Shown one piece after another: positions 716 through 52,464 of a stretch of 64,000 nucleotides of DNA. The stretch is from Amoebophrya sp. A120. Lineage: Eukaryota; Protista; Dinoflagellata. Made by a program: the position numbers and the translations under genes. The stretch is from assembly GCA_905178155.1 (NCBI GenBank), contig CAJINV010000001.1:15190142-15254141 (forward strand), given 5' to 3'. Below the pieces are notes generated by a model. That model searched no databases and had not been told where the DNA came from. It worked only from the letters and a program-made list of their open reading frames with translations. Each line of letters opens with the position of its first letter. Position 1 is the first letter of the stretch.

Positions 716-3195
716 ATGAAGCGGTCGCGGGAGCGAACGCGGCGACGGGCGCCCGACGGCAGCCTTTTTCGCTTCGACAGTCCACCCCGGGATGCGCAAG
801 GAAATCTGATAAGCAGCACGAGCGGCGGCAAACAGCCGTTCCCCTTCAATATCTGGCAAGTCCGTCCAGAGCCGATCGTGACAAACTTCTCGAAACTGAA
901 GAACGTGATTGCCGCGGACAGTTCGCTTTCTCTCGCGGTGGATTATCCTGATTAAAAGCGTCCCCACACCAGAGTCAAGATGGGGATTTTGCAACACAAA
1001 CCTAGGAGTTTTGGGAGTCACGCATGACAAGTTTCAGTCCGTAAGGTAGTGCAAGTTAGCAAGGAAAGCCGCATCACAAATCGACCTGCTAATCCTGTTT
1101 ACAGCATTACAAGTTCCCAAACAGGATTGAAAATGCCTGTCATGGGGTTGCGCATCACAAATGTTCCTGTCATGGCAAATCTGCATGACAACTCTGGGGT
1201 GGGGACGTTTTTACACAGGATATGGATTGCCAGATGGCGATGTCGGAGCTGTACGTCGGAAATCTGCCGCCCGGAATAACCCCCGATATCAAATGTAAAA
1301 ATGTCTGGGTCTGGAAGAATGCAACTTGTGATGCTAGTTTCGATGTCTAAAAAATTTGTGTTGCATGAGCAGGAAAAGGAGTCTAATTTTTGCTACGCGG
1401 AGAGGGCATTTGTCATACGGAATGGGCATCAAGAATCCCCCAAAAAACCTGTGATGCTAGGGCATGCATTACAGGCATCATGGGTCATGAGATGACAAAT
1501 TTTGCATTCTTCCAGACCCAGACATTTTTGCATTTGATACCCGAGCAGTTAAAGCAATTCATAAACCGCTGCGCGGCGGTGCTCGGGATTGGACCGCAAG
1601 CGGGACTAGTGACCGCTAGCAACTACGAAGACACGTCAGACGAGAGCGGGGAGAGCGAAGGGGAAGATGGGCAACCGGCGAAACAATTTGCATTCGGGTT
1701 CTCCTCCTCCAATGGGCGCAGCAGCAAGCAGACGAAGACGCCGACGGGCGTCGTCGCATCCGTGGCGATGGCGTCGAAGGACCGAAATTTTGCGTGGGTG
1801 ACCTTCAGGAAGGACAGGTACGCACTTTTGTCTCTGCAAATGAGCGGCATTTATTTGTGCGGTAAGAAGCTAAGGTTCGGTCGGACCTACGCACAAATTC
1901 GTTTACGTGAAACAAAAAACTCCCTGCCCCACGACCATGCTGCACTTTGCGGACACTTTGCTTCGCATCTTTTGCAAAATACTGAAATCAAATGGGACAA
2001 AATTTGTACTTAACCTGCTTGGGGCAACCACATTTTGCCACGCTTGCATGCAACATTGGATCACCAAGCACGAGCAGGAATAAAGCACTGGCTGTACTAG
2101 CACTATTATCCGCAAAAGAGTTGTGCAAGTGAAGGGAAAACAAAGTGCCGATTTTTCGTATCTACATCCCAATGAGGCGGAAGACCGCGGTCTGCTGGTC
2201 GAGGAACTGAAGGCTATTCAGGTGGACCAGGCAAACGTTACCGTGGGCGCCATGCAGCAGCAGAACGCGCAGCAGGCGGCCCTGGCGCAACAGCAGTTGC
2301 AACAGCAACCCTACAACGCGGCGGCGATGCTGCCGAGTGGTTCGACGCAGATGAACTTGGGGATTCTGCAGGATCAGAAGTACTGCCTGCACAACATCCC
2401 GTCCAGCGTGGAGGAGGAAAAGATCTCGCAGCTGCTCCGTACCTTTGGCCCGCTGAAGTATTTCCAGGTGGTCAAGCTGGACGGACAAAGCATCAAAGCG
2501 GCGTTTTTCGAATTTTCCGACTACTTCACGCAGAAGAACGCGCCCGTGACGCTGCAAGGGCTCACGATGGCGGGGAATAAGCTGCAAATTATCACCCCGG
2601 AGGAGGCGTTTCAGGTCGGGTTCGGCCGCGGGAAAGTGTCCATCGGGGATAGGGTCATCCCCTCGAAAATCCTCTACATTGGGAGTTTCATTTCGGAGCA
2701 AGAACTCTGCAACGACGAGGAGTACGACGAAATTTGTGCGGATATCAGGGACGAATGTGCCACCTATGGTAACTATTGTTGTTTTTGATCAGAGGATTCT
2801 TGGTTTTTTGTGATTTCATTTCCATTCCCACCACCGCTCCACCAGTATAGTTTATTTCTTACATGCTGCCGAAGAAATCATTTGAAAAAATATTTTGCCT
2901 TTCAGGTAGAGTCATTGACATGGTTGTTCCGCGTCCTCACGACGACACCATCACGGACGCGGACAGGCTCCGCGGTGTGGGGTATGGTTTTATCGAATTT
3001 GCCGACGTGGTGTCGTCCAGTAAGGCAAAACGCGACTTCGACGGGCGAAAATTCGGGGACTTCACGATGGAAGCGAATTTTTTCAACGTGAAATTGTGGC
3101 AAGATCGGGACTTCAAGTCTGTGAAACCCAACACGGAGGCGGAGCCGGTAATACACGCGAATGAGGAGGAAATGGACATTTCTTCAAGTGGGTGA
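716..3195 (+). CDS. U2AF2: U2AF large subunit (U2AF65)-like splicing factor, multi-exon, with two introners
   Basis: Removing elements 944-1222 and 1287-1539 (plus one DR each) gives VDCQMAMSELYVGNLPPGITPEQLKQFIN (RRM1 RNP2), then NFAWVTF. RRM2: YCLHNIP...AFFEF. C-terminal UHM-type RRM: PSKILYI...EYDEICADIRDEC..YGRVIDMVVPRP...GVGYGFIEF...FDGRKFG. The intron at about 1900-2120 is unresolved. Confidence 0.8.
944..1222. mobile_element. Introner family A, copy 1 (279 bp, DR TGGAT)
   Basis: About 32-bp TIR TATCCTGATTAAAAGCGTCCCCACACCAGAGT / ACTCTGGGGTGGGGACGTTTTTACACAGGATA; DR at 939-943 and 1223-1227; close paralogue at 13746-14024; excision restores V-D-C-Q. Confidence 0.93.
1287..1539. mobile_element. 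Introner family B (253 bp, DR CCCGA)
   Basis: 38-bp TIR TATCAAATGTAAAAATGTCTGGGTCTGGAAGAATGCAA with one mismatch; DR 1282-1286 and 1540-1544; excision restores T-P-E-Q-L. Confidence 0.95.
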
Positions 3196-4026
3196 CGACG
3201 AGTCATCATCTACTCTTCATCTATCTTCGGAAGATGAACAGAAGGAACCATGATTTTTCCCAACCCGTATTCAAACATTCTTCCAATTAACAGCGACTGG
3301 CGATACTAGATTGATGACAACACAAACTCTTGCGACCACTTCTTGAGAAATGGCTCCTGGTACTGCTCGCGCAAGTGCGAAGTGAAGTATCAGCGTGATC
3401 CGACTCCAAGCCGCACTGGTGCGCCTGCCTGCCTTTTCACATTGCGTGTTCCTGTTTTCATCTATGAATGTCACAACTGGCCAGCACAAGAAGGACCTAC
3501 TCTTGTGGATGTTCCAAAACTCCGCTTCTTTCTGGTCTTGGCGCTATTACTGCAACAGCAGAAGAACGATCACATCAATAGACACCTAAAACGAATTTGA
3601 AGAAAACGCTACGAACGGAACAAGATCATATCATAGATAGAAGGGGCAGCTCGAAAAAGTACAACAAGGAGCGCCCATTACTCCTACCTCCTACTGTATC
3701 TTCTTTTCTACTAAGTAACAACGAACTCTTTAATATGTTGCTTTGCTTTTTTTCGCAGCAGGGCCGGCTACACCAGAAAGACACTTTACAACAGTTTCCT
3801 ATGTATAGAAAATAACCAAAGTCATCTCCTTTTCCTGTTTTACCTAAGTGAAGAAGGCGTTTGCTCTTTCTCTATTCCACAAAGATGGGCGGCACGACCA
3901 GACGACCACAGCTCTGAAAAATAACAGCACAATAACGCGAAGAAGTACCACGACGACGTTTTCTACTTCACACCTCGATTGCAGGTGGTACCACCTCCCC
4001 CCCACCCCAAACTCCGACGACCCACT

Positions 4027-9296: not shown

Positions 9297-12200
9297 ATGT
9301 CGACAGTCGAAGAGCGCATCAAGGTGTTGCCCCGGGACAAATTGGAGAATTTGTTCCACAAGAGTTTGGAAAAATGCCGGACGGTGGAGGGGCAAGCTCA
9401 AGCGTTACAGCAGGAGCAGGCGGTTGTAAAAAAGGAACAAGAAGTTACACAACCTAGTGAAAAGGAAGACAACACACAGCCGGATGTTCAACAAAAGAAC
9501 GACGTAGATGACGACACAGCAGGGGCGGAAAACAAGGAGGCGCAGGAGCAAGAGAGGATACACGCGGAGCAAGTGGCGGAGTTACAGAAGAAACAAAATT
9601 CCGACTTGGAAGACCAGCGAGCGAACTGCGAACGAGAATGCGCGTCGTTGCAAGCCTATCAAATGTGAAAGTGTCTGGGTCTGGAAGAAAGCAACTTGTC
9701 ATGCTGATTTTGGATTCTAAAAACATTTGTATTGGATGAGCAGCAAAGAGAGTCCAAGTTTTGCTACACGGAAAGAGCGTTTGTCATGCGGTATAGGCAT
9801 CAGGAAGCCCTCACAAAATCTGTGATGCTAGAGCATGCATCACAGACATTAGGAGTCATGCAAAATGTGCATGACAAGCCTGGCAATCTTCCAGACCCAG
9901 ACATTTTTACATTTGATAAAGCCTCTCTGGACGAAGTGCGGGGCCGACTGGTGGCTTCGGAGGAGGATTCAGAAGTTGTAGACGAGGGGGGAAGCAGTGC
10001 AGTTGTACTACCAGTGGACGAGGCGGCGCTCAGCGAGGCTCTTGCGTCGCAGGAACACGAGGACTTGCGAAAACGTCTTGCGACCACGCGAGAAGGAATC
10101 GTCGCAGAGAAACGAAAGGCGCAGGACGAACGCGCACGAAGAAAAGCAAGCGTCGAGGAGCAGCTGCGGGTTCGTGCACAGGAGGCAGAAAGGGAGCGCG
10201 CGCAGAAAAATGCCGTACTACGTGCAGCATCAGACGAGCGAGTACTACGTGAAAGGCAAGATGCGGAGGAGCGCGTCGCATTGGTAGACAAAGAGATACA
10301 GAAACTGAAAACAGCTGTAGAAGACACACAAGAAGATCTCCGCGCTGCAGCAGAAAAGGAAAACCAACTACAGGCTGAAGTTGCAGCAGCCGTGGCGGAA
10401 ACTTCACATCAAGCGAGCGACGAACCTCCTGCGCAGCAGCCAACGCCGCCAGCAGACAGTAACACTGCAGAAGACTGCTCAACCGCATCGAAAAGTGAAG
10501 AGATAGACGCACTGGAAAAACAGCAAGTGGATTTGGAAAACCGAATACAAGCGCTCAAGGCCGACCAGGCACAGAAGGAGGAGGAACTAAACGCGCGGAT
10601 ACGAGATGCGAGGCAAAAAGTGTCGCTCCTGGACGAGCACGCGGCGAAGAGGAAAACACTTGCAGGGGCTGCAAACTTGCGGCGGGAGCTGGAGACGAGA
10701 AGAAACTACTTGACGGAGCTGGAAAAGAATCTTGCGGATTTGTACTCAAACAGCACAAAGTTCGAAGCGGAGCAGACGCAAGTAGTCAAGCAAGAAATAG
10801 CAACGCTAACGAGCGATTGGAAGGGTCTGCTGACAAGTTCAGGTAGTGAGTAAGGTTCAGCCTCGTTTTTGCGTGCCTATCGTGAGGTTGGTTTTTCCTT
10901 CTTTTGAATAAACGTGAAATTGGCATGAAATATTTGAAAATCCAGATTCCTTCTCCGCTGCCACAACCGGGAGACTTACAAACAACGCCGAGTGGATGGG
11001 TGCTTTGTCCTCCGCAGCGAGTAGCGCTTTCCAAAGGATACTGGAAGACAAACGGGAGCGGGTACGCGCGCTCGGGAACACGAACAAAGTCCTGCAGGCG
11101 CAACTGCAGGAGACAAAAGCGGAGGGGAAAGCGGTGGTGAGCGAGTTTTCGGAGAGCCGGAAAGACACGGCGCAGAATGCGCTGGACGAGCTGGAAAAAC
11201 TGCAGAAGGAGGTGGAGGACCTGAAGAGAACCAAAAAGAAAGATGTGGAGTTCACGCAAAAGGAGCAGGAGAAGCTGCAGAAGTACGAAAAAGTGATCCA
11301 GCAAGCGGACGCCAAGCTGAAGGTGAACCAGAAAAAGTGCAGTGCGCTGAAGGAACAACTCCAGAAGCAACAAGAGGAGCACGTGGCGGCGCAAATGGAG
11401 CTCGACCGCGCGAAGCACGCGGGACAGGAGCTGGACTTCGATCACGAGGAAGTGCTGGCCTGCGTCGAAGTGCCTGTGCGGGGGACAGCAGCTAGTGCCT
11501 CATCTACGTCGAGTAGTACTACAAGACCGAAAACGCCGACTGGGTCCGTGGGAGTTCTTACGAAAAACCCGGCGAAAAATTCAACATCGAAAAATCTTCA
11601 GCCAGATTCTGAAATCTGGTGTCTGCTGAAACACCAAAGCAAAAATCTCGACAAGACCAGCACGGCCAAGGACCTCGCCTACAAGCAAAGCAAATGTTGG
11701 TGGCGACTGCAGCAGCTCGAGGAACTGCTCCCGAAAGCCACCAGCACGACGTTCCCCGTGCCCTTGCAAACCCAGTACCGCCAGTTGCTGGAGAAGCAGG
11801 AGCAGCGAGTTTTGCAAGTGACGGAAGTAAGAAAGGAGCGAGAGAAGTGTCTCGAGAATCTCCGTGCGGAGTACCAAAAGTACAAAAAGAAAGCGGACAC
11901 CGTGGCAAAACTGCAACAGCAACAAACGTCCTCGTTCTCTTCATCTTCGGATGGAGCAGGGGGTACATGCACTTCCGAGCAGAGTCTCAAACCCGAGGAG
12001 AGCATGGCCAAGGGGTTGGAGAAGCTACAAAGTGATAACGCGGAACTGCGTTCGCACATCGCCGCGGTGAGCAAGGAAATTCGGGAATTGCAGCAAGGCA
12101 ACACGCTGCACCACCAAACTGTGGGAAAAATCCGCACGGAAATTCTTCGGATTTGTGACTCCCTGGCCCAGAAGTCCACGCAGCAGACCAGCTTCGAGAA

Positions 12201-14607
12201 GAAAAAACAGTCGATCCGGCAGGAAATTCAGAACAAGGAGGAAGAGCGATTTATGCTGGAGAACTACGCGGTCGAGCTATCAAAAGGAAAAATCCCCCCT
12301 CCCCATATCAAAACGGAATTTCTGATGCTGGATTTGTGTACACAAATCAGCTCTGTATTGCAGAGAAGCGCTGCGGCCAGATCCCCAGGCTAGGTAGCAG
12401 GGACGTTTGGGGCTAGTTGTTCAGCATGGCAAACGGCTCCCCTTTAGTCCCAAGAGCATGACAAATCGCTTCCATAATGGCGCGAAAGCTTCTGCCCTTG
12501 TCTTCTTGCAACAGAAATGTGATTTGTGGCCTCAAATCAGCATCGCAAATTTTCGGAAGCATACCTTGTTGATATGGGGAGGGGGGATTTTTCCTCACGA
12601 TACGAGCAGAATAGCACGCGCAAGAAGGCGCTGGACCAGGAAGTGGATATCTTGCGCACGCTGGAGAAAAACCTCCAGGTAGAAAGAAAAACGCTGCAGG
12701 AGAAACTCGCAAGCCTGTTGGAAGAAAGGCGTGAACAGAACGAGAGAACGACGACGGCAAGAAAGGACGAAAAGGATGATGGAAAAGCAGTCGCTGGCGC
12801 CGAAGAAGCGGGGAAAAAAGAGAGTTTGGAAGGTATTAGGTGTTAGAGTGCAAGAGCAGCTCCATCAACTTCGAACCATGCGTAGATTCTAAACTACTGC
12901 ACTTCGTCTTCGCAATGGCATCCATTGGTTTTGGTTTCAGTACAGGTCGTTCGATTATCCATGTTTTGCCTGCGCACGCCGACATGCAAATGCAATTTCA
13001 AAATGTGATGAACGAACCACACTCATAAACAGCTCCGCCGGAGGACGCAGGGAAAAAGCTGCAGCTTCCGCTCGGCGTGAGCACGAACTCCAGTGCAATA
13101 CCGCCGGAACATCAAACAAAGGGCCCTTCCTTTCTCCCGCCCAATCGGATCACCACGACATCCGGCGGCAGTAGCACGACGCAGTCGACGGCACCGGAGC
13201 AAGTATATCAGAACAACAACTTGGAGGAAGTCCTCCGGCAGCCCACCGTCGCTTGGTCAGACCTGATGGAGCTCCGCGCGCTCATCCGCCAATACGAACA
13301 GTGCTTGGAGCATATTGAGGGGAAAAATCCCCCCTCCCCATATTGAAAAGGTATGTTTCCGAAAATTTGCGTTGCTGATTTGTGACCACAAATCAGGTTT
13401 GTCTTGCAAAAAGACAAGTGCAAAGACATCCGCCCAATTGTGAAGCGATTTGGCATGCTGTTGGTTCTAGGGGGTAGCCATTTGCAATGCTGAACAACTA
13501 GACCTGAGCGCTCCCACCTAGGCTGCGGATCTGGCCGGAGTGCCTTACTGCAAGACAAATCGGATTTGTGTACGCAAATCAGCAGCAGAAGTTCCCACTT
13601 TGATACGGGAAGGGGGGATTTTTCCTTTTGATAGAGCAGGAGAAACGGGACGAGGACTTGTTGCGGCAGCAGAACGACCACCTGATTTTCCAGCTGCAGG
13701 AGATCTACTCAACTACGAACTTGCAGCAAAACATGAGCGAGCAGATATCCTGAGTAAAAACGTACCCACACCAGAGTCAGGATGGGGATTTTGCAACACA
13801 AACCTAGGAGTTTTGGGAGTCACGCATGACAAGTTGCACTCCGCAGTGTAGTGCAGGTTAGCATGTGCAACCGCGTCACAGATTCATCTGCTCATCCTGT
13901 TCACAGCATCACAAATCCCAAAACACGATTGGAAATGGCTTTCATGCGGATGCGCATTACAAGTCTTCCTGTCTTGGCAAATCTGCATTACAACCCTGGT
14001 GTGGGTACGTTTTTACTCAGGATAGCAGACGCAGCTGGAGTACATCCGGAACGTGTTTCGGCAGTTTCTGGATTTGGACGAGAACGGCTCCATATGCATT
14101 GCAAATATGTCTGGGTCTGGAAGAATGCAAGTTTGTCATGCTTGCCTGGCATGACTCATAAATCTGTAATGCATCAGCAGGAAAACGAAAAGGGCCTCTT
14201 GCCTGTCATGCAAAAACGCAGTTTGCCATGCGGAAAACGACACACAGTAGCAGTTGAAAAAATTGTCATGCTTCGCTGCCGATTGCAGTCCCCCCACCAG
14301 TCACATTTTAGCATCACAAGTTTCCAGACCCAGACACATTTGCATTTGATACTCCAGTTCGCTGTACCAAAACCTCACGTCTTCCCTCGGCGGGTCGCGG
14401 AGTAGCTCCGCGGGAACCCTGCAGAAGCTCGCGGAAGAACACGAGCAGTGCATCCCGGTTCTGTTGAAGTTCCTGGAGTTTGATCTTGTCGAGCAGGAAC
14501 AAATCCGGCAAAAACGCGCAAAGAAAGCCGAGAGTTCCTACTACCAGAACGCTGCGAACGAGACGGCAAAAATGATTACCAATTTACGCGGATGGCTCAG
14601 GTTTTGA
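9297..14607 (+). CDS. GRIP-domain golgin-like long coiled-coil protein, multi-exon, with five introners
   Basis: Long E/K/Q coiled-coil ORF pieces. After removing the elements at 13313, 13746 and 14093 the C-terminus reads QLEYIRNVFRQFL...EHEQCIPVLLKFLEFDLVEQEQIR...LRGWLRF*, matching the GRIP pattern (EYLKNVLLQFL...LLPVI..LL.F). Confidence 0.8.
9657..9918. mobile_element. Introner family B (262 bp, DR AAGCC)
   Basis: TIR TATCAAATGTGAAAGTGTCTGGGTCTGGAAGA / TCTTCCAGACCCAGACATTTTTACATTTGATA; DR 9652-9656 and 9919-9923; restores L-Q-A-S-L-D-E. Confidence 0.94.
12278..12602. mobile_element. Introner family C (325 bp, DR CGAGC), orientation 1
   Basis: TIR TATCAAAAGGAAAAATCCCCCCTCCCCATATCAA / TTGATATGGGGAGGGGGGATTTTTCCTCACGATA; DR 12273-12277 and 12603-12607; restores A-V-E-Q-N-S-T. 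Confidence 0.94.
13313..13633. mobile_element. Introner family C (321 bp, DR GAGCA), orientation 2
   Basis: Same TIR type; internal sequence is the reverse complement of the 12278 copy; DR 13308-13312 and 13634-13638; restores C-L-E-Q-E-K-R. Confidence 0.93.
13746..14024. mobile_element. Introner family A, copy 2 (279 bp, DR GCAGA)
   Basis: Perfect 29-bp TIR TATCCTGAGTAAAAACGTACCCACACCAG; DR 13741-13745 and 14025-14029; restores M-S-E-Q-T-Q-L-E-Y-I-R. Confidence 0.95.
14093..14351. mobile_element. Introner family B, divergent copy (259 bp, DR CTCCA)
   Basis: TATGCATTGCAAATATGTCTGGGTCTGGAA / TTCCAGACCCAGACACATTTGCATTTGATA; DR 14088-14092 and 14352-14356; restores N-G-S-S-S-L-Y. Confidence 0.9.
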
Positions 14608-15347
14608 TTCAATCGAAACGATATGAGTATAAAGCGAAAATAATGAGTACAACTTCAAAGCGCGAACTTGTTGGATGGCCACCGTCCTCTCGACGTCGTT
14701 CTCAGCGATGGATGGCAGTGATGTGTGTGATATGCAAACAGTGTTCGACAATGACAAATAAAACTCCACAGGAAGTTCTGAAGATCGTGGAAGATTCTGG
14801 ATTCGAATATCCGTTCGGTTTTCCTTGTCGGAGCTTTGATTGTGAAGAACGATGAGGAGAGCAACATATCGGTAATAAACTTTTGTTTGATCATCGTCGC
14901 AGGGTGGGGCACGCATTTTTTGGGTCGTGAAACTTACCGAACCAAATTTTTGTCGTCGTCCGTGAAGAACCTCGCATGTTAAGGTCATGGGAGGCCGGTA
15001 CCTGTGTTTGCGCACTGAATGAATCAATACTTACTCCAGGACCACAAGTTTGTCAATCTTTTCGATTTCCCGCTGAGAAATTATCGGTTTAAGCCTTTTC
15101 GATTTCAGCATCGGTTCGTGGGTGTTCCCTTGATGCGCATAACTTTTCACTTTGTTCTGTCATTTGTGAAATATGAAGTACCTTGTGCACGATCTCATTT
15201 CGTTTTTTGAAGTGAAGTGCCGTCACCTCACAACGGCTACCTCTACGTACAACCTTGTCGGCTGTGTATATCGGCCGTATTTCCACCGCAACTTTTGTGG
15301 CAAAGAGGTAGAACCAGGAAGAGACTAATAAGCCTCGAAAGAAGAAG

Positions 15348-16824: not shown

Positions 16825-16887
16825 TTTTTTTTGACGGAATAGGAAGCTTTATTCCGAGACTTTGAAGCACAACAAGAATGTGAACGG

Positions 16888-16934
16888 CTCCCGCATTTGG
16901 TCGAATATTACTAATATTCGACCAAATGCGGGAG
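16888..16934. repeat. Perfect 23-bp inverted repeat with a 1-nt spacer
   Basis: CTCCCGCATTTGGTCGAATATTA-C-TAATATTCGACCAAATGCGGGAG read directly. Confidence 0.95.
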
Positions 16935-17587
16935 AGATAGGGAGATAGGGAGAGTCCCCCTAAAAGGGGGCAACAAAAACAAAACCAAATTGATCGCAAA
17001 CAGCACGGTACGGCCACGACAACATCTTTCGAAATCTGGGGCGGAAATGCTTCCGAAATCTGATGAGGGAAAGTTGAAATGGTCATTGCAATTTTCCTTC
17101 GATGAGGGAAAGTTGAAGCGGCCATTTCAAATATCCTTCGATGGGGGAAAGTTGCAGTGGCCATTTCGATTTTCCTTCGATGAGGGAAAGTTGAAGCGGC
17201 CATTCTAAATTTCCTTCGATGAGGGAAAGTTGAAGCGGCCACTTCAAATATCCCCCCATGAGGGAGAGCTGCAGTGGGCATCTCGATTTTCCTTCGATGA
17301 GGGAAAGTCGAAGTGGCCACTTGCGTTTCAAATTTCCTCTGATGAGTCAACGGGCGCGCGGTGCTCGTTTGCCTTCGAATCGATGCAACGCCATTGGCTG
17401 CGTATGGGGTGAGTGAATGCGCGCGCGCAGCGCGCGCGCAAAATTTTTTTGGTTCTACGGCTTACCAAAACGGAGCATACCGTCGTGATTCAAGGGGATG
17501 AGGTTTACTACGGCTCTCCCTATCGACCTATTCTCCCTATTCCGCTCTCCCTATTCCCTCGATTCACTACAGTCGTATATATATTAG
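16911..17587. mobile_element. Possible non-autonomous TIR element (MITE-like) carrying a minisatellite
   Basis: Ends CTAATAT.../...ATATTAG, each flanked by TTA; subterminal ATAGGGAGA motifs on the left face TCTCCCTAT x3 on the right. Confidence 0.4.
17062..17348. repeat. 39-bp tandem repeat, about 7 units, each with an internal hairpin
   Basis: GATGAGGGAAAG-like cores start at 17062, 17101, 17140, 17179, 17218, 17257 and 17296; consensus TTTTCCTTCGATGAGGGAAAGTTGAAGCGGCCATTTCAA. Confidence 0.92.
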
Positions 17588-17755: not shown

Positions 17756-18664
17756 ATGCAGGTGGGTGGGAAGCAGCCCCAGCTCCCGGGGGTGCAGAAG
17801 CAGGTGGTGAAGGTCGGAAAGAACGCGTTTGTCGCCCCGGCGGAACCCTCGAGTCCCATCCACAGCACGCCGCCGCGTTCCAGCGGGAGGACGTTACGAC
17901 GAATTTCCGTGTCCCCCGATTTGTCCAAGGCGCTGGCGCAGGAGGTGGCCAAGATCAACTCCCCAAAAATCCCGAACTTTGAGGAATTGGATAAGAAAAA
18001 AGCGGCGAAAGAACAGCAGTTTGCGTCCACGCCAAAGCCAGAAGTAGTGAACAAGAAGGTCGTGTTGAGCAAGGCAAAGGAAGCCAGTAAGGAGAAGAAG
18101 CCGGCACCAGCATCAAAGGAGAAGGCTGACGAAAAAGATTTGTTTAAGGAGGATCCCGCTGACGACACGAAACCCGCTCCGAAGGCAATGAAGGCAGCGC
18201 CAGCGATGAAAAAGGCAGAGAAGGAAGTTAAGAAGGTAATGAGCAAAAAAGACGAGCAAGCCATGAAGAAATCGCCACCACCAATGGCTGCTGCAAAAGG
18301 GGGCAGTAAAAAGGACAAAGCAGCACCGGCAGCCGCAAAGAAGTCACCACCAGCAATGAAGATGAGCATGAAAAAGATGCAGAAAGCTCATGCTGAGGCG
18401 AAGGCAAGTCCGAAAATGGCATCATCCCCAAAAATGGCATCATCTCCGAAAATGGCATCATCGCCAAAAATGGCCTCATCACCCAAGATGGCAGCCATGA
18501 AAAAGGAAGCAAAAAAGGAGAAAGCTTCCAGCATGAAGAAAGCCGCCGCGGCACCAGCGAAGGCGAAGCCAAAGATGAGCAGCATGAGCATGAAGAAAGC
18601 CGGCGCGACTGCATCTTCCTCACCAAAAATGGGGGTGAAAAAGACCGCCATGAAGAAGAAGTGA
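17756..18664 (+). CDS. Lys/Ala/Met/Ser/Pro-rich basic protein, histone-H1-tail-like
   Basis: 302-aa ORF with (MASSPK)x4 at 18416-18487, many AMKK and SPK motifs, ending KKTAMKKK; the true start may lie in an upstream exon. Confidence 0.7.
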   Translation: MQVGGKQPQLPGVQKQVVKVGKNAFVAPAEPSSPIHSTPPRSSGRTLRRISVSPDLSKALAQEVAKINSPKIPNFEELDKKKAAKEQQFASTPKPEVVNKKVVLSKAKEASKEKKPAPASKEKADEKDLFKEDPADDTKPAPKAMKAAPAMKKAEKEVKKVMSKKDEQAMKKSPPPMAAAKGGSKKDKAAPAAAKKSPPAMKMSMKKMQKAHAEAKASPKMASSPKMASSPKMASSPKMASSPKMAAMKKEAKKEKASSMKKAAAAPAKAKPKMSSMSMKKAGATASSSPKMGVKKTAMKKK

Positions 18665-19079
18665 ATTCTGCTGCAACAGTTTTCTACAAAATAAATCTTG
18701 AGAATACAGGGCAACGGGTTCTTGTAGATGTGCATTTGTTGATGTAGTAGTCTACTACAACCGTGTCGTCGTGTAAAAAAATATCATACTTCTTTTGTAC
18801 CTGTAACATAAGGTCTGGTGATGTCACCGTAATAAACAAATAAAACGATAACGTGCCGCATAATGTGATTAAACTTTAACAGTATACTATCAACGTGTCA
18901 TGCAACGTCGCATTCGCAGTGACAGTGTATACGATTTTCTTATCATAGCTACCCACACAGAAATTTGCACCACTTGCGCTACACTTCCGTACATACAAGG
19001 TCGAGGTGATTCGTCGTCTCCAGAGTGGTCCCAAATGCGAATGTCTGAAATTGATTCTACCTCCCTTCCTCAACGCAAA

Positions 19080-25733: not shown

Positions 25734-26448
25734 GCGAAGATTATGGCAGTAGGAGTAGCCGTTTTATCATCTTGTTCTGCTGCTGCGAGGTGATTTTGCG
25801 CGGTCGCGGTGTGTCCCGGATGCGCTAGACCTCTTGCGTATGAAAAAGTGGATATCGCTGCGCCGGGGCTTTGGTTTTGGTCTTCCATAGGTTTCTCGGC
25901 TTAGCTCGCCGCTTACAGTGCACTTCAAACATGTTGGCTCTACTTCTGCGCAGTGTCGCCCTTCCAAGAATTAAGTAGAATCTGTACAGGCATAGATTCA
26001 TTTGTCCAAGCGCCTGGTCATTGCTGCATCTGTGACGATGCTCGTTTCTACTTTTTGTGTTTTCCCCGAGGGCATAATTGGCAAACAGCGGCTTGATTTT
26101 TGCAAATCGTGACTCCGTCGCTTGTGGTACGAGAGAGAAGAAGCACCCATGAGCGCTGCAATCATCCAAAAGAAGCAAATTTTTTCGTTTATCGCCGTGA
26201 TCGCGAATCGTTGTGCACGATTTCAAATGGAATACATCGCAGGTCCCATTCGTTTCGAAGACTTCTCAGGTTGCTGAATACAATTTTTTCGCCCTCGTGT
26301 CCCCCGTTGAAAGACATCTATGATCTGCTTTTTTTTGCATGCGCGAGTTTTTCTTTAATTGTCCATGTCGGCGCCGAGCCTTGTTGTAGTTCACATTCAG
26401 CACTTTTCACTACGGCACCGCTGAGCAGAGCCTTTTCACTACGGCAAG

Positions 26449-29400
26449 ATGATGATCACCGGGCCGTCTCGTGCCGAAACCGCGGCAACTTTGCGTCGAC
26501 GGTATGACGCTTTGCGTATTGTTGCTGGAATTTTTCTGCTCTCCGTTGTCGCCGCAGGTGCCTGGATATTGTACGATTGGTTTGAGAACAGGCACTTTCC
26601 ATTTTGGACCGCGATATTTGGTGGCGGGCCGAGCGAAAACACGGAAAAGAAGGAGAGGCTTTCCACATCAACTACGTCGACTTCTAGTTCCTCCAACATG
26701 AACGGTCGTTACACTGTCCAGGAAAAAACACCCATCCACATCCAATTTGTCATGCAAAACATACATAAAATCCTGTGTTTGTCATGCAAAAAATGGATGT
26801 GGATGGGTTTTTTTCTGTGGATATACACGCTGGACGATCCCCGCGCGGCGAAATTTGAAACGGAATTCGCGAAACGCGGAATGCAGTTCTTTGACGTGTA
26901 CAGTGACGTCATTGACTCGCGCTACGCGGAAGTGTATTGGACGGAGCAGGGGAATTTGCCCTTGCCGAGGGTAATCCAGGACAAGTTCGAGAACGGAAAA
27001 ACGATCGCGATCACGGGGTACGAGCATGACCAAGTGTTTGCGAGTGATCTCAGCGTGTCTGTGCCCTTCTCCTGGGTCTACAACCACCATTACGTCGTAT
27101 ATGTGACAACGGGGAAGATGGAGTACAAACTTGCGGCGAGGTCCGATGTGCGAAAGTGGGCTATGAGGAAACACGGGGATGAAAATTCAGGTTCTCGGAG
27201 CAGTACTGCTGCTACCGAGCTTTCGAAAAATCAGCATTTGGACCTGCACCACATGGGTGTGGGCATGCGGGACTGGAACAAAACGCACGTGAGACTTTGG
27301 GTGCCGGTCGATAGCAGTCCCAAGAAGAAAGAACGTGAAAATTTTTATCCAAGCGACGACTCGACGACTATTCCGCGCTCGCAGTTTATTTCCGAGGCAA
27401 ATGGCGGGGAGAGCCGCAAGAGCCTGCACAGCTATCCAAAGGGCTTAGCGCAACTAGTGTACTCACCGAAGTTCTGGCACGTGACGCCGATGCAGGTCGA
27501 CAGCCGGAACCGGAAGTGCGGGTTGGATCCGAGCACGGTCGGAAAGCCCTGTGCGACACTCGGTCCGGAGCCAAGGCAAGCGAGGTACGGAAGAGAGATG
27601 AAAAACGCCAATGTGTCTGCACTGGTGGAGTGCCCGTGCACCGACCGGTTCGGCGGCGACCCGCTGATTTACGGGGAGGCAGTGAAGACGAAGTCCTTCC
27701 GCAAGCAGTTTGTGGTGGAGAACTGTGGAGCCGCAAGTACAACAGCTACGACCGCGAAAGCTGCGCAATGCTTCGAAGCGGCGGCAAACTTGGTTCACCT
27801 GGATTCGTCGCGAAAACCTGTGATCGTAAGAAATACGACCGTGCCAGCGGACAGTGCGGAACGCGCACCAGCCGGATGCTCTGTTCGATTTGTCGACACT
27901 CCTGCAAGAAAGCAGGAGCGGCCAGCAGCTGGCGCCACACGATCGCGGCGTGCAGAAGAGGACACGTCGTCGGTAGAGATCCTCTTTCGCGAAGCAGCAG
28001 CTGACTCACTCCAAACATCGAAAGATATCAAAAACTCTGTTGCAAAAAAGTGTACCACGGCCGCCAAGAAGCTAGGGAGTGTGTCTTTTGACGGCATTGG
28101 TGTGTCTACCGAGATATCTGTCAACGAAACGCACGTGGAAATGAGGCTGCAAGGACCCGCGACTGTTTGGTTCGGCGTGGCATTTGACGCGGTGCTGATG
28201 GCTGACCAGCCTTACACCATCCTCGTTTTGCCGAGGGGCTCGACGTCACCAACCGGGGCCAGCTCCTCACAAATGGTTCCACCAACAGAAGCGGACGTTG
28301 TTGAACAGCAGATTGGCACGTGCGGCGAAGAGGCGCAACATTGTCCCGGGGACAGGCTGAAGATACAGTCTTTGACGAAACTAGAGGACCGAGTTGTCGA
28401 AATTAACCCAGATGATTTTTACGTAAGTGAAAATACAGGACCGAGTGCACGAACTTCTTCTGGTGCCGCACCGCAGTTCATGCGCATAGTGCGCGTGGTG
28501 CGGAAGCTGATCGGCGCTAGTCCGAAACACTACACCTTCAATGCCGGCACCATCAATCTGATGGCGGCGATCGGCCGGTCGCCGAAATTCGCCCATCACA
28601 AGGGCCACCGACGAAAGCAGGTCGCACTGTTTGACAGGAGCGCTGACGCGTTCAACTGCGTCTGCGTTGATTTGAAAACGCCAGGCCTTCTGTGCGATTC
28701 CAACGGCCTGAATTGCGAGTCCTTCGTGAAAAACTGTGCGCCGGATTGTGCAAAGACGGACATTTTCCACACAAAGGAGCACCACTGCGGCGACCTGGTT
28801 TGGCAAGAGAACCCGACCTATCAAATGGAAAAATGTCTGGGTCTGGAAACTTGTGATGCTGTGCGGCGTATCATGAGGAGGCCACAATTGCTGGCTCAGC
28901 ATGACAAGTTTCTGAGCTGCTAGGTGTTGCCTATTCTGCATGAGAAACTACCTTTCTGCATGACAGAAAAGTGGGGCTCTTTGGTAATGTGCATGACAGA
29001 TTTAAGAGTCATGCCAGACAAGCATGACAAACTTGCATTCTTCCAGACCCAGACATTTTTACATTTGATACGACCTGCGCCAGTCTGAGTTATGTGGGGG
29101 GTCTTCAGTGTTGCCGACACGGATCGACGTTGCTGGACCAGGGGCAGAAGATGGACCCGCCAGACGTGCTGCAGTATCGGGTCAAGTTCCGGTTCTGGTA
29201 CGAGGAATACAACGAAGGTGGGCGTACTGTCAACACGCAAGACAGAAAGAACGCAGCTCAAAGCCCGACGAAGGTCCGCCCTCCATCGCACCTGAATCTC
29301 GATCGACTGTACTACCAGACCGAGGGTTTCGCTGGTGAGTACGATGTGCCGCCGGCGTTCCGGCTCCCGACCGAAACTCAGCCTCTGGTTGGATTTCCCG

Positions 29401-42506: not shown

Positions 42507-45500
42507 ATGGGAGGCGGGAATAACAATCGCGGCAACAACAAAGGGGGCGGCGGAGGACAGCACGGTAAAAACAGCGGCAGCAGTAGCAAAAACAACAATC
42601 AGCGGAACAAAAAGAAGGCCGACGACCAGACGACGCGCCCGGTCGCTTTCGACAAACGCAACTCTTCTTCCGCGCTAGAAAATGACCCTGACACTAACAG
42701 CAAGCTCCAGCCGATCGAGTGCCCGGTGTGCTGCGACACCGCGGTGTGCGCGGCCATCGGCGTGGAGTGCGGACACTGGGCGTGCTTCAAGTGCCAACTG
42801 CGGATCCGCGATCTGGCGCAGTCAAAGGAGACAAAACGGAAGTGCCCGATGTGCAAGACCACGAACAACAAACTGGTTTTCACCCAGCGCCCGGACTACT
42901 TCTTGCAAAACATCAAGAACGACAACACGAACCGCTTCTACACGGAGGTGTGCCACATCAAATTTGACGAGTGGGGGCACGGTTTCGACAAGGAGAACAA
43001 AGCCTTGATGCAAAGAGCCGTGGAGGATTTGTATTTGTACAAATGTTGGACCTGCGCGCCCCCACAGCCGGCTTTTCAGACCCTCTGGGACCTGACCAAG
43101 CACATGGAAAAGCAGCACAGTCGCTACTTTTGCCGAACCTGCTTGGATGGTCGGGAGATTTTTCTGGAGGAGCAGATGTGCTACGCAACGAAAGACGAGT
43201 TGGATTTGCACCACCGCGTCGGCGATTCCGGGCTTGTCCCGATCAAACCGCACGCGGACTGTCAGTTCTGCAAGAAGTCGTTTTTCACGCACCAGGAGCT
43301 GTACCAGCATATGATTGTGGAGCACATCACATGTTTTTTGTGCTTCGAAGCGCACCGGGAGAACCGGTTTTTCAAGGACATGACCTGCTTATTCAACCAC
43401 TTTCTCGCGGAGCACCACGTCTGCCGCTACGAACGGTGCATGCGGGAAGGGATATTTTCCCAGGAGACCGTGTTCGCGCACGAGGCACAGCTGGCGCAGC
43501 ACCGCATCGCGGTGCACAAGAACCACAACGGACCAACGAAGGAGGAATGCTACCGGCCGAAGCTGGATATCACGGTAATTTTGTTAGATCTTTATTGCCG
43601 GCATGATAGTCTTAGTTCTTCCTAGAGAATCAGAACTTGTGTAAAGACTTCTACTACATCAACAAAGCGCCTGATCGTCATAAAATTCTACACGATCATA
43701 TGAATCGAAAAACAGGTTACCTCCACGCTGAACGGCTTGTCACACGCCCAAATCAACGATAAGGAGACGATGGCGGCCATGCCGCAGCAAGACAAGCCCA
43801 TCTACTTCACACACATTCACAACCCCGAGCGACCTCCGAAAGAAGTGATTCTCCCGCCGTTGCCCAAGAAGGAGGTCGTCGACCGATATCCGGATCTCGG
43901 CTATGGAATGAGTTGGAAGGACTTTGATGCCGCAAAGCACCGGAAAAAAGCACAGGAAAGGAAGAAGAAGACTGCAACTACCGGAGGGGGCGTGCATCAA
44001 AACGGAGCTCCAGGGTCTCCGGAGCAGCACGTCTACGATCCAAATGCGCCTGAAGATGGCAAGGAACAAGAAGGAAATGTCAAGAACGGCGCGAGCACGC
44101 CCGAACAGCACCCCGTTGATAGCGGCGACGCCGGCAGCCCAGCAGAGGACAGCGAAGACGACCAGCGGACCTTCTTGCGCGCCAACGAGTACGAGGCAGA
44201 GCAGCAACAGAAAATGGTAAAAGCGCTGCCCGCGGATTTGCTCGACCTTCCTCCCTCCGTCCGGATGGACACGCAACTCCAGAAAAGCAGCTTCTTGCAC
44301 GCAATTGATGCCGTTCTGGAGTGCAGCGTGGGAAGCGTTACGAAGTGCAAAGTGGAATTGATGAAAGAGTCCGTGAAGCAGCAAGCCGACGGCGGTGCGG
44401 CCGGACGGGTGGACATTCCCGGCATGAAAAAACACATTGCGATGCTCAGCCCGCTGGCGTTGGACTCGTTGTCCGAGATGCGCGCGTTTCTGCTGCAGAC
44501 TTGGGATTCGAGGTTCAACACCGAGTTGATCACGGGGCTCCGGCCGTTATTCTTCCGCACTCTGAGAAATGAAGACCACAAGGGCACGCCCGCGCATTGG
44601 TTGACCTGGAAGTACCAGGCGCACAACGCTCTGGGGAAGCTGCGGGCCATATCAAAAGGAAAAATCCCCCCTTCCCATATCGAAAACGGAATTTGTGTTG
44701 CTGTATTTGAGTACACAAATCACATTTGTGTTGCAGTAAAGGACTGCACGCAGATCGTAAGCCTAAGGGGGGCCCTTGCTTTGGTGTAGGGCCTAGCATG
44801 GCAGACGTCTGCCCTATAGGCCTTCCAGCATTACAAATCGCCTGCATATCGTGGCAGACTCTCTGAGTTTGCCCTCTTGCAAGAGAGACAGGATTTGTGG
44901 TCGCAAATCAGCATCACAAATTTTTAGAAACATGCCTTTTCAGTATGGGGAGGGGGGATTTTTCCTTACGATAGGCCAACGAGCGGGAATTGATCCGCTT
45001 GTACGTGGGGTTCTGCCTGGAGCGGAACGTTACCAGCTACGCCGGCCTCGACCGCGCGAAGGAGTATTTGTTTTGAGATGTTTAAGAGCTGTATTTAGTT
45101 TTTCAGTCTGTCGCGCACAAGGCTTCTTCCTACGTTTGTGATGACGAGTGTGACGTCGACGTCAATGAATGTGTTTTCGAAATCAAACTTGCATCGCTCT
45201 CTTCAAACCCAACACAGGTATCCCTCCCTCGAGCAGTCCGCGGTGTCTGCTGCGGCCAAGGACGCGGACGCGTTCAACCCAGAGCTTGCTTTCCGCCCGG
45301 AGCGACGGGGGGTCGCGGGCACACAGTGGCAGGGCCGCAACGGCGGGTTTAACGCCATGGGCTCGCAGGATTTTCCGGCGCTGGCGGAGACAAGGACGGT
45401 CGATGAGGACGGAACGCCGCTGCTAGAATTGACCATGGCGGAGAAACTGAAACTGCAGGAGCAGAAGGAAAAGATGAAGAAAACCGCCAAGGCACCGTCC

Positions 45501-47627: not shown

Positions 47628-50606
47628 ATGAAGAAGTTTGTGGAGAGACGGCTTGCGCGCGAGCGCGTGCTCGAGAAGGAGCAAATTGCACTGCGGAAAC
47701 AGGTGAAGGACATCGAACTTATGAAGTGCCACGGGGAGGCCGATTTCCGGGTCGAGGTCGCAAGAAGAGCACGAGAAACAAATGAACAGAAGGCCGAGGT
47801 ACAGGAATAGAGCCTGCTTTTGAAGATCGTGTTTTTATTGACTATGCGCGGTCGGAAAAGACTTCTCCTGACGCATGGAAGTAAAACTAAAGAACAACGA
47901 TAAATAATTCACTGTACAACTATAAAAAATCCAGGTTTCCACCGAGTATGCCCACGTGCAGGCACAGCAGGTTGCAACGCGAAAAGCCATCGTTAGCAAA
48001 ATGGAAACTGATCTCGCGATCGAGCTGGAGCGGAGGAAAGCACAAGCAGTTATTGAAAGGAAAAACTCCCCCTCCCCATATCGAAAAGGAATGTTTCCGA
48101 AAATTTGTGTTGCTGATTTGAGGCCACAAATCACATTTGTCTTGCAAGGAGACAAGGGCAAAAGCTTCGCCCCCATTATGGAAGCGATTTGTCATGCTGT
48201 TGTGCCTAAAGGGCAGCCGTTTCCCATGCTGAGCAACTAGATTGATACGCCCCTACATAGCCTGAAGATCTGGCCGCAGTGCCTTCCTGCAATACAGAGC
48301 TGATTTGTGTACACAAGTCCAGCATCAGAAATTTCGTTTTGATATGGGGAGGGGGGATTTTTCCTTTCGATAGCTGTTCGCGAGGAACAGGATCGCATCA
48401 GGATGTACGACGGTACACGACGATTGCTTCGGCTTTTTTTGTGTTAGGTTTCTGGTGGAAGCACGTTATCGAGCATGCAGCAGGCTGTATGTCGGTCATG
48501 ATTTGCACATCATTTTGGAAAAAATAGAAATGTCGTGTTTAGTTGTGTCGGGCTCAGAATTTTCTAAACCCGGCCAATCTATCAATCAATGCAGGTAGTG
48601 AGGAACTGCGACAAATCAAGACGAAGTTGCACCAAGCGCAAGTGAACAAGGAAAGGCATCAACAGCTCGTGGAGCAGCTCCTCAGAAAAGAGCAAGAGAA
48701 GCAAGAGGTACGCTTGCGTTTGTTGCGTCACACGGTACAGCCTTTGGTTTTCGGCCGACACTGAGCAGTAAAGCCAAGAGAAATATTCATGGATAATCAA
48801 CGAAAAATGAAACTAAAACAGGAAGAAGAAATTTCGCAGCGGATGGAGTATGATCGAAGGGAAGCAATCGAGAAGAAGATCGCGGACGAAATACACAAGT
48901 CTCAGCAAAGAGGTAAGGCTTTGTAGGCACGGTGGTTTTATTTTCTTGCGCCCATGTGCTGTGGTTTTACGCTCAAAGAAATGATCCGCTCCTCCTGCCC
49001 TTGCGTTGCTTTCTGGGGGGCACTGGGGCAGTGGAGGTATCACACACGACTGACGCTGCTTTTTTCAAGCGCATCTACCACCCACAACTCCAGGTAAAGT
49101 GACCGCAATAAATCAGCAGCAGATCATATTGCGAGAAGAGGCAAAGGGCTTGTCAAAAATCCAAGCCGAGAAGGAGAGACAACAGGTAGACATAACGCGT
49201 TTTCGCGTATACTAAGTTAATTCGAACGCACATCGTAAGAAAGTACCGAACAGATGAAGCAGTGAAGGTGCATAATCTGAATAAAAATCAGCTTGAAAAG
49301 TAATCTCCGAATCAATACTGCTGTTGTAGGTTGAAGCAATAGTGGAGCAGATCGCAAAAGAAGACGCTTTGGAAGCCGCCACAAGAAAGAGGAAACAGGA
49401 GGAAACCCAAGTCATGCTGCGGGCCTTCATGATTGAGCAGCAAGAGCGCCAACGAAAAATGGAGCAGGTATAATCACTCAATTGCTGCTGTTGAATGTGC
49501 ACGAGCAAACTGCTGCAAGGTATTCCAAGAAAAGATAGATTGCTTACTAAGTGCAACTTGTTCATGTTCCACCTGGACCTGTGTTGTTTCTCTGGAGAAC
49601 GGTCCGACTGGAACACAAAAAACAGGACGAGCTCGACGAGATGGCCGCTATCGAAGCGTTCGCGAAAAAGAAGCGTGCTTTGGAGGAGGCCCAAGAGGAG
49701 GAGAAGCGCAAGGCAGAGGAGGCGAAAAAAGCCGCTTACGAGCTCATCGTCGCGACCGCCGAAGCAAGAAACAAGGAGGCGGAAGAATTCGAATTCCTCA
49801 AGAACGAGCTGTAAGCTGCTTTTACTTCTTGTTGGAACGTTCCAGGTTCGTTGGTTGTCGTGAGGCCTGGTTCGAATTTCCTTTGGAGAATTAGATCTTT
49901 TCTTGAGAACAAATTTGCGCGTTGATGTTCACAAAACCGCAGGTACGCAGAGGAGCTCGAGGCCCAACAGCGACGGAAGGAGGAACTGGGTATGCGCAAA
50001 AAGCTCGAGGACCGCGCGGAAATGTTGAAGGCATACGAGGATCAGCTGCGTTTGAAGGAGGAGCGCCGGGTCCGCGAGGAGCGCGAGGAGGCGGTGTTCC
50101 GGGAGAAGCTGCTGCACAAATTCGCGGAGGACGACAGAATAGAACAGTTGAACGCACAGAAAAAGCGCATGAAGGTCCAGGAGCACAAGCGGGAAGTCGA
50201 GAGGCTACTGCAGGTAAGTATGTTGAGGGGTGCTGGCTTAGTACAACCTACAACTTCGCATGGCGATACGTGTACTTCAGTTGCTGCAGCATCTTGTTTT
50301 GCTTCGCCTTTTTGTGCTGAGCACGTGGACGTGGTAGCACGAGTCCCCTGCCATGTCATGCGCTACGTTTTATTTCTTCGTGAAAAACAGGAACGGCGCG
50401 CTCAGTACCAGGCGGAGCGGGATGCCGAGCTGCTGGAGCTGGAGGAGCAGCGCCGGGTGCAGAAGGAGCGCTACGTGGAGATCGAGGAGGAGAAGAAGCG
50501 GCTGCTCCGCGAGCATTGCGTCCAGTTTCGCGACTACCTGCCGAAGGGCATGTTCCAAAACCGCGAAGACTACGACTACGTCATGGCCCAGCCCGAGCCC
50601 AACTAA
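47628..50606 (+). CDS. MNS1: MNS1 (TPH-domain ciliary microtubule inner protein), multi-exon; one introner
   Basis: EELRQIKTKLHQAQVNKER, FREKLLHKFAEDDRIEQLNAQKKRMKVQEHKREVERL and EEEKKRLLREH...YLPKG match MNS1 signature blocks; the start is uncertain. Confidence 0.88.
48051..48372. mobile_element. Introner family C (322 bp, imperfect DR GCAGT/GCTGT), orientation 2
   Basis: TIR TATTGAAAGGAAAAACTCCCCCTCCCCATATC / GATATGGGGAGGGGGGATTTTTCCTTTCGATA; restores K-A-Q-A-V-R-E-E. Confidence 0.92.
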
Positions 50607-51452
50607 AAAGAAGTCCTGTGCGGTGTTCGCGGAAAAATTAAGCGAAATAATTCCTAAACTTTTATCAGACATCCAAAGCATCAAAAGTTTTAATTCTATC
50701 ATCAGACAAATCAGACAAAAAGTTGCAGTTGTCGGCAGAACAACTGCACGAAATAAAGGGAGGGGAAACAGCAGCACGACCTCCCACGGTTTCAATTTTC
50801 TTTACCTTTCTTTACACATCAGACTAAACGCAGACAAACTTGTTACGATTTGAAACTACAAACAGACCAAACAGATTATCATTTGAACTCGTGTTGAAGT
50901 AAAGCAGATATAGATTTAGCAGACCAGAAATTGTTCCTGCTGCTCGTTGGGTTCAGTTCTTGCTTCTTTCTTCTGCCAGAGTTGGCTGGCAGTTCGCCTG
51001 TACTCGCTACAAGCAGCAGTATGGAAAAAGCTGAAGAGACGTTTTGAATGTTTGCACTAGCGCCGGACTCATTCTTGCGCGAAATGGACGGAACAAAATG
51101 AACAGAACAACAGTAGATGCGGACACAAAACAACAAGTGCAGAACTTGTTCAGCTTTTGCGCGGTGTTTCATTATCTTGAATTTGGTGAAGCGCTAACAA
51201 AGTATGAAAAAAAGACGAAGCGCACTCCACCCGGTTTCTGGGTCAGAGGTGTCCCACCTCTGACAGGTACAACAGGAAAATCCTTTGCTTTCTTTGTGTT
51301 CCCCCACCTCGCTGCGCGTGGGACCATAAGCGCGCTTTAAGTACACTATGCATGGCTCAATGCTTTTTCACCGTCGCGTGAAGAAGGTCGCGCGGCCAGA
51401 TCTGAGGACAGCACTCAAGTCATGAACTAGGAGTCGAACATCAGTGTGCAAG

Positions 51453-52464
51453 ATGGCGTCTGAGGAGGCTGCGGAGGAAATTGCAGAAGAGGCCAGCGAA
51501 GAGTCCTCAGCAAACGTCCCGGAGCTGGATCTTTCACATTGTGGCGTCAAGCAAAGGGTCCGCGACATCCAAGCCGACATTAACGCCGAAGTGCTATCAG
51601 CTCGACAGGAGATAATTGTATTTGATGCTTTGATGAAGATGAAGTAAGTAGGTGTCGGCTCGAACGAAAACGATTATTCGCTCATATCTATCAAGCCAAA
51701 AGCTGACTTCTCTGTAAGTAAATGATTTTCGAATGCCAAAACCACTTCAACAGCGCCTCGAGCTGAAAAAGGGGACGCGAGTGAACGAGGAAGTTGCCAA
51801 GGAGGAGAAGCTATCAAATGTAAAAATGTCTGGGTATGGAAGAATGCAAGTTTGTCATGCTTGTCTGGCATGACTCTTCTATCTGTCATGCACCTTATCA
51901 AAGAGCCCCGCTTTTCTGTCATGCAGACACGTAGTTTGTCATGCAGAATAGGCAACACCTAGAAGCTCAGAAACTTGTCATGCTGAGCCAGCAATTGTCG
52001 CCTCCTCATGATACGCCACACAGCATCACAAGTTTCCAGACCCAGACATTTTTACATTTGATAGAAGCAATTCAAAGAGGGCGTGACAGCAGCCGTGAAG
52101 GGGACGCAGCGTGTTATCCTCAAAGACCTGCGCCGATTCGAGGATTCGATACAACCGGTGAAGCGGCTGCAACATGCGGAGAACGTATGACGGCAGAAGT
52201 TGCGAATTTCGTTGAATCATGCTCGCACCAGTTGTGCGTACTAACTCGCAGCAGCGATACATAGATGAATCACCGAAACAAGATCTGCAAGAGCCACTTA
52301 GCCTCAGAAAGGCAAATGCTTTCTGTAGTGACAAAAAAAACTAAAATCAGATGCGGATATTGAAGCAGACCACCCAGATCCGGCAAGACACGAAGGCGCT
52401 GCGGAAGATGCTTCGCAATTTGGACAAGCGGCTGCAGAAAATGGAAAACGAATTGGAGTTCTAA
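51453..52464 (+). CDS. Small coiled-coil hypothetical protein, multi-exon; one introner
   Basis: MASEEAAEEI... exon; EEKQFKEGV after introner removal; last exon ...LDKRLQKMENELEF*. Confidence 0.6.
51812..52063. mobile_element. Introner family B (252 bp, DR GAAGC), opposite orientation to the 28819 copy
   Basis: 30-bp TIR with one mismatch; DR 51807-51811 and 52064-52068; restores E-E-K-Q-F-K. Confidence 0.95.

Follow-up and report, generated by a model that had tools for sequence, protein, structure and literature searches.

Introners with terminal inverted repeats (TIRs) and direct repeats of 3-5 nt have been reported from the dinoflagellate Amoebophrya sp. A120, in 1,954 families and 29,850 copies (Farhat et al. 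2021, PMC7789003). According to the same source, non-canonical introns make up more than 60% of the supported introns in Amoebophrya, and the motifs of the A120 introner families begin with TAT, continue with seven positions of lower conservation, and close with three or more A residues. Here we consider a 64,000-nt stretch of the A120 assembly GCA_905178155.1 (contig CAJINV010000001.1, positions 15,190,142 to 15,254,141 of the forward strand), which is called the window throughout and in which 12 TIR elements with 5-bp target duplications lie between positions 944 and 52063, all in + strand genes. An earlier note, made from these letters alone, had proposed that unrelated element families share one end code, TATC-N4-G-N-AAAAA, which is invariant at the sense 3′ end and also serves there as a strand-specific processing signal. 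The published introner motif is the same as this end code, and the shared motif was therefore already known. We conclude with good confidence that the elements resemble miniature inverted-repeat transposable elements (MITEs) and are inserted in exons of Amoebophrya-type genes, that they are absent, together with one duplication, from RNA-type contigs in all five cases examined, and that their end motif is likely a symmetric transposase signal and not one specific to the downstream end. A strand-specific 3′ signal would have been the first handle on the removal of non-canonical introns in Amoebophrya; it does not hold up, and the class is that of the known introners.

A shared end motif and an internal repeat

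Inverted repeats flanked by short direct repeats were located in the window with a finder that treated both ends alike, yielding 11 elements with perfect duplications; the twelfth (48051-48372) has a single mismatch in its duplication. All 12 are short (109-325 nt) and non-coding, with TIRs of about 30 nt or more and a constant 5-bp duplication, and they belong to repeat families: pairs within the window are up to 95% identical, and copies found outside it are up to 94% identical to window elements. The TIR starts of the four families (A-D) are as the earlier note wrote them, and its premise of one end code common to the families was borne out, as the exact pattern TATC-N4-G-N-AAAAA has 17 matches in the window versus 0.18 expected. 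In the looser form of TAT, 7 nt, and at least three A residues, the motif is present at 22 of the 24 window ends.

Copies outside the window were obtained by scanning TIR positions 14-30 of family B against 11 of 64 parts of the metagenome contigs. This gave at least 146 loci; 20 of the 146 were chance seed matches and were dropped, and 126, all from one assembly, JACKZZ01, were merged into 117 segments comprising 204,751 nt, with flanks of up to 1,500 nt. The JACKZZ01 organism is a close relative and not the window's strain. An SNF2 search listed no protein named for A120, and the relationship was judged from protein clusters: of four outside open reading frames (ORFs), one fell into a cluster with an A120 protein, to which it is 92.9% identical. 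The first, symmetric finder called 135 outside elements (0.5 false calls per shuffle), of which 82 were oriented and 53 were dropped for low posterior or short flanks. A second finder, which ignores positions 1-15 and the duplication, made 171 core-anchored calls, 112 of them oriented; a perfect 5-bp duplication is present in 132 of the 171. The union of the two finders, limited to duplications matching at four or more of the five positions, contains 153 copies (105 oriented).

Sense strands were called with a codon hidden Markov model that took no account of the elements and whose training set left out every ORF lying within 3 kb. In the window, the model assigned 12/12 element junctions to coding sequence of the + strand (posterior 0.67-1.00 when long flanks were used), and Pfam families were found in 8 of the 28 + strand stretches scanned and not in the one - strand stretch. 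The calls were also checked beside outside copies lacking the 3′ GATA, where Pfam families occurred in 5/42 predicted-sense stretches and 0/40 antisense stretches.

Among the 270 ends of outside copies, 98-99% carry the consensus base at positions 1-3 and 11-13, 94% have G9, and 84% have T8, whereas position 4 is divided between C (73%) and G (24%). The end code is better written as TAT-S-NNN-T-G-N-AAA than as TATC-N4-G-N-AAAAA. The proposal that it is a common transposase end signal stands in part: the signal is common and real, and a role for a transposase is the most likely one, but the motif had already been described for A120 introners (PMC7789003).

Contrary to what had been supposed, the families are not unrelated. 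An internal GCATGACA motif is common to them, and GCATGAC is found in the interiors of at least half of the members in 9/9 families, three of which have a single member. The form GCAT[GCT]ACAA, which was picked after inspection, occurs 29 times in the 3,237 nt of window elements versus once in the other 60,763 nt, and the GCAT(G/C/T)ACAA repeat is common to all nine families of the window and the outside loci (L001-L143). The direction of the internal repeat goes inward-outward with the ends of the element and has no transcript strand bias (166:196); because it lacks such bias, the repeat fits a candidate transposase-binding site acting at the level of DNA.

Removal of the elements from RNA-type contigs

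Joints were read from assembled contigs of four runs, representing two samples of one study, whose RNA nature had been guessed automatically, and they were examined over window positions 9300-14800, i.e., for five of the 12 elements. All five are missing from the RNA-type contigs in 4/4 runs. The skipped segments measure 267 nt at the family B element 9657..9918 (262 nt, duplication AAGCC), 330 nt at the family C element 12278..12602 (325 nt, CGAGC), 326 nt at the family C element 13313..13633 (321 nt, GAGCA), 284 nt at the family A element 13746..14024 (279 nt, GCAGA), and 264 nt at the family B element 14093..14351 (259 nt, CTCCA), all given on the + strand. Each skipped length is that of the element plus exactly 5 nt, i.e., the element and one duplication. 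The two family C copies lie in mutually opposite orientations and both are removed, as are two copies with deviant 5′ ends: 13313, which begins with TATT, and 14093, in which a 5′ TATG forms a G-G mismatch with the 3′ end and the 3′ T-tract is broken. The same contigs also skip two canonical GT-AG introns of this five-element gene, one at 10843..10945 (+ strand), which fixes the sense strand of the gene, and a second at 12833-13032 (+ strand). At the element beginning at 944, an RNA-type contig match ends at 938, and the remaining 339 nt correspond by arithmetic to the next two exon pieces, the joint itself not being displayed.

A register with GY..AG borders is available to none of the five RNA-checked copies, to 1/12 window copies, and to 10/82 outside copies. 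Two runs of raw RNA reads from 2026, X8 and X9, lack coverage of the unique sequence of the window and yielded no joints. Run X8 does contain about 117 raw RNA reads with the family B end (window 1283-1336) and other flanks, which represent a copy that is retained, or untranslated, in a related strain.

In outside copies that lack the 3′ GATA, the frame is restored at +5 just as it is in GATA copies, with a median stop-free run of 177, as against 102-108 in the comparison registers +3, +4, +6, and +7, and at locus L015 a copy ending in CATA splits a conserved SNF2 helicase motif where homologues are continuous. Frame restoration and homology, both read from sequence, together suggest that copies without a 3′ GATA are removed as well. 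The same SNF2 gene holds an older family C copy (L015:2512-2846) with a 3/5 duplication, at which three or more bases of the upstream duplication would have to stay in the exon to preserve a Phe conserved among homologues; this is one case. Imperfect duplications, which bear on the splice register, were found in 13 outside cases, and their mismatches are spread over all five positions.

Conservation of the sense 5′ and 3′ ends

The end counts on which the proposed 3′ signal was based are correct. Sense 3′ ends in the window read GATA in 12/12, have C at -9 in 12/12, and have T5 in 11/12, versus TATC in 8/12, G at +9 in 10/12, and A5 in 8/12 at the sense 5′ ends; the four deviant 5′ ends are TATT (twice), TGTC, and TATG, and three of the four can pair as G-U. 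The contrast rests on these four copies and is not significant (Fisher p 0.093, paired sign p 0.125, whole-motif sign p 0.0625).

In the outside copies, conservation is no higher at the sense 3′ end than at the sense 5′ end. With the first finder, 49 of the 82 oriented copies have a 3′ GATA and 62 have a 5′ TATC, the discordant copies numbering 12 that deviate at the 5′ end only and 25 that deviate at the 3′ end only; with the second finder, the corresponding counts are 63 versus 82 among 112 oriented copies. The union gives 62 versus 82 among 105, together with T5 in 62 versus A5 in 68, and C-9 and G+9 in 99 each. Across these 105 copies the core is symmetric, the 5′/3′ counts being 102/97 for TAT, 99/99 for G9, and 100/98 for AAA. 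Keeping sense 5′ and sense 3′ ends separate, as the earlier note had proposed, thus reveals no lesser degeneracy at the 3′ end, a result that applies to the close relative and not to the window's own genome.

The expectation that conservation would follow transcript rather than element orientation was not borne out either. With element orientation taken from the interiors alone, non-TATC sequences in family B are confined to end 2 in 32 copies and to end 1 in 12 (p 0.004); TATT is at end 2 in 5/11 family C copies, and TATG marks end 1 in 9/11 copies of family E. Transcript position within each element end, by contrast, has no significant effect (Fisher p 0.14 and 0.54). The three orientable deviants of the window (13313, 48051, and 14093) all have end 2 upstream, and its 12/12 GATA can be ascribed to the four copies with one variant end all having landed with that end upstream (1 in 16, one-sided). 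Family B orientation with respect to transcription is 33:35, five window copies included, and removal appears to be indifferent to the orientation of the element.

The commonest variant end is TATG, found at 64 of the 270 outside ends. Decay of CpG, which had been offered as an explanation of TATT, is possible for some TATT ends but was rejected as a general cause of variant ends, since TATG cannot arise in this way. In the window and outside element lists, TATT is followed by G in five of eight TATT ends, and the observed/expected ratio of CpG is 0.53 in outside elements versus 1.09 in the whole window. Avoidance of a cryptic donor at G/TATG was also considered and gave no signal, the link to a preceding G having p 0.60. 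Rescue of deviant ends by G-U pairing has no support, as G-U pairs are not enriched over the mirror A-C mismatches (50:53). Mismatches in the core were 60/1344 in coding and 8/216 in non-coding copies; this comparison carries no information, as the non-coding set amounts to just 18 copies and some of the ends counted are mis-registered.

Proposed mechanism and alternatives

If the end motif is a symmetric transposase signal, one transposase would mobilise all families by binding the motif together with the internal GCATGACA repeat. The transcript would then fold the two ends of the element into a long stem; terminal stems are predicted for both elements that were folded (z -2.7 and -6.9). Machinery reading the symmetric stem, or the motif at both ends, would cut within the duplications, and cutting there would restore the original mRNA whichever way the element is inserted. 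Any model of removal must take out the element and one 5-nt duplication, in either orientation and without GT-AG, and must also tolerate a C-C or G-G mismatch at position 4.

Several points weigh against this reading. No transposase and no splicing factor were identified, no autonomous partner with the same ends is among the outside loci (the longest call is 631 nt), and viral and prokaryote collections gave 0 matches to the family B end pattern. The RNA nature of the runs is an automated guess; the outside copies were all drawn from a single assembly, that of a close relative, without RNA support of their own, and three-quarters of them belong to family B, on which the search was seeded. Given the lack of G-U enrichment, selection on RNA pairing in the stem is not shown. 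The all-GATA 3′ ends of the window have a probability of 0.049 under family-matched outside rates and of 0.002 under unmatched ones, whereas the bias outside is the opposite, 14 discordant copies deviating at the 5′ end only versus 34 at the 3′ end only (p 0.0055, uncorrected); because of this weak opposite bias, the symmetry may not be perfect.

As to the machinery, it is quite possible, if short of probable, that removal is spliceosome-free and blind to orientation, the symmetric end code TAT-S-NNN-T-G-N-AAA (and perhaps GCATGACA too) being read on the paired stem and 5 nt being measured across the duplication. Were this so, any exonic insertion, either way round, would be harmless, the system would be a second origin of Euglena-like non-canonical splicing, and the slight upstream preference for TATC would be the only trace of polarity.

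A modified U2 spliceosome, acting as on known introners at relaxed splice sites or at sites recruited from the target-site duplication and with no part for the end motif in splicing, is conceivable but somewhat doubtful. A near-complete spliceosome is described for A120, U1 not being detected in that account (PMC7789003); canonical introns are spliced in the same transcripts, and 48/82 outside copies offer an AG in at least one 3′ register. Such a spliceosome fits poorly with the scarcity of GY..AG registers given above, and it would be expected to read polar signals, whereas there is no orientation bias and no position is strand-biased after correction. As a question of machinery, this alternative does not conflict with the finding of symmetric ends.

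Unlikely, in our view, is a mild polarity opposite to that of the earlier note, by which TATC is preferred at the sense 5′ end and copies in which one end reads TATG or TATT are more likely to persist when that end lies downstream. The 14 versus 34 discordant copies argue for it, and the direction is the same on both contig strands (5:13 and 9:21) and at three posterior cut-offs. However, the comparison is post hoc and uncorrected, and p becomes 0.037-0.088 once the window is added; position 4 alone gives p 0.019, which is lost after correction over 30 positions, and the tests within each element end are those reported above (p 0.14 and 0.54). The bias is absent among 27 unseeded neighbours (6:5), a copy with a 5′ TATG is removed, and the preceding-G link is likewise not significant.

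It is very improbable that the end motif has a second role in 3′ processing, as a strand-specific signal made up of a U-tract and GAUA, and that the sense 3′ end alone is invariant for this reason. The case for it consists of the window counts, their probability of 0.049 under family-matched rates, and the removal of two copies with deviant 5′ ends. Yet the window difference is not significant by any of the paired or whole-motif tests (p 0.0625-0.125), the outside copies retain a 3′ GATA in only 49/82, 63/112, or 62/105 according to the finder (with TATC in 82 of the last 105), and the unseeded neighbours divide 6 versus 5. Moreover, 14093 is removed despite its broken 3′ T-tract, and none of the three elements in the SNF2 gene of L015 has a 3′ GATA.

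Least credible of all is that the missing segments were lost when reverse transcriptase jumped from one 5-nt direct repeat to the other across a strong hairpin, and that the elements are not true introns: such template switching would, as is generally known, yield loss of the element plus one repeat, the ends form strong predicted stems, and the RNA evidence derives entirely from contigs assembled in a single study, but it is unlikely to be the whole story because 97/105 oriented copies carry stops in all three frames, and 64/105 would shift the frame, yet they lie in conserved coding sequence, the summed depth in the 12278 element is 0.3-1.2 versus 7-25 in the flanking exons (a contig depth, and thus a weak measure), and Farhat et al. 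(2021, PMC7789003) report tens of thousands of read-supported non-canonical introns.

Other elements and features of the window

For an exon in the window that encodes part of RPN1, a proteasome subunit, identity is 100% to a protein named for Amoebophrya sp. A120, with 99% of the exon aligned, and 70% to A25. All of the genes examined are on the + strand, GC skew is positive in 28 of 32 bins over positions 1-64000, and this co-orientation matches the co-oriented gene blocks reported for Amoebophrya.

The seven elements beyond the RNA-checked region are also given on the + strand. The first gene (500-3200) contains RRM and is itself split by two non-canonical elements, one of family A at 944..1222 (279 nt, duplication TGGAT) and one of family B at 1287..1539 (253 nt, CCCGA); its Pfam match is RRM_1 only, and we take it to resemble the splicing factor U2AF65. 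The family D element at 26715..26823 (109 nt, TACAC) has the 5′ end TGTC and no close outside copy (best 51%). Together with its duplication it measures 114 nt, and it could be read through because it is in frame and stop-free within the ORF 26425-28923. Two family B elements, 28819..29070 (252 nt, CGACC) and 51812..52063 (252 nt, GAAGC), are 95% identical and lie in opposite orientations. In family C, the element at 44650..44973 (324 nt, GGCCA) is the sole window copy with a GC..AG register, and that at 48051..48372 (322 nt) has the 5′ end TATT and the imperfect duplication GCAGT/GCTGT, the mismatch of which (48046-48377) is synonymous in frame.

An uninterrupted ORF of 2,286 codons at 18873-25733 has no Pfam match. 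Tandem repeats of 39 nt and 18 nt lie at 17023-17334 and 18409-18498, respectively, and Rfam has no match anywhere in the window. A one-mismatch end motif at 32040-32054 (- strand) and the sole copy of the internal motif outside the called elements, at 32684, are possibly the remains of a decayed element.

Relation to known systems

The main text of Farhat et al. (PMC7789003) neither tests orientation or end asymmetry nor mentions an internal GCATGAC motif, although its figure logos might show the ends separately; beyond that paper and those of Nomura and Gozashti, the literature searched gave nothing on orientation or end asymmetry of A120 elements. The element class and the shared motif were already known, and the refined consensus, the orientation test, and the internal repeat, which are absent from the literature searched, are modest additions. 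As described in that main text, A120 introners resemble the window elements in their inverted terminal repeats, direct repeats, non-canonical borders, and end motif and in forming many families, and protein identity places both in the same organism. They differ in that the published inverted repeats are 8-20 nt with variable direct repeats, whereas the TIRs of the window extend over some 30 nt or more, next to a 5-nt duplication.

Like the nonconventional introns of Euglena, as reported by Nomura (2025, PMC12501133), the window elements lack GT-AG borders and occur beside canonical introns, have paired ends (here predicted), and are flanked by short direct repeats across which the junction can slide. 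In Euglena, however, the code is N3CDG...CHGN5-6/R, with unequal spacers, and was shown by knock-in, whereas the window elements have TAT..G.AAA at both ends, known from sequence; the euglenid pairing of CDG and CHG ends is not seen in per-position frequencies, which show TAT-S-NNN-T-G-N-AAA. The window elements are also young, repeated transposon copies, unlike the Euglena introns described there.

A further parallel is provided by the spliceosomal introners of Symbiodinium, Aureococcus, Micromonas, and other organisms, with TIRs and target-site duplications (Gozashti 2022, PMC9860276), which are likewise MITE-like, form an intron on insertion, and lose one duplication such that mRNA length is unchanged. 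Those introners are described as carrying or recruiting GY/GA and AG sites, whereas the window elements are without such sites in most registers and are inserted in either orientation. Finally, introner family 38 of A120 (Gozashti 2025, PMC12130899) is from the same organism, is bounded by TIRs, and forms introns; it has an integrase-like ORF, whereas the window elements are without coding capacity, and it offers a lead for the missing transposase.

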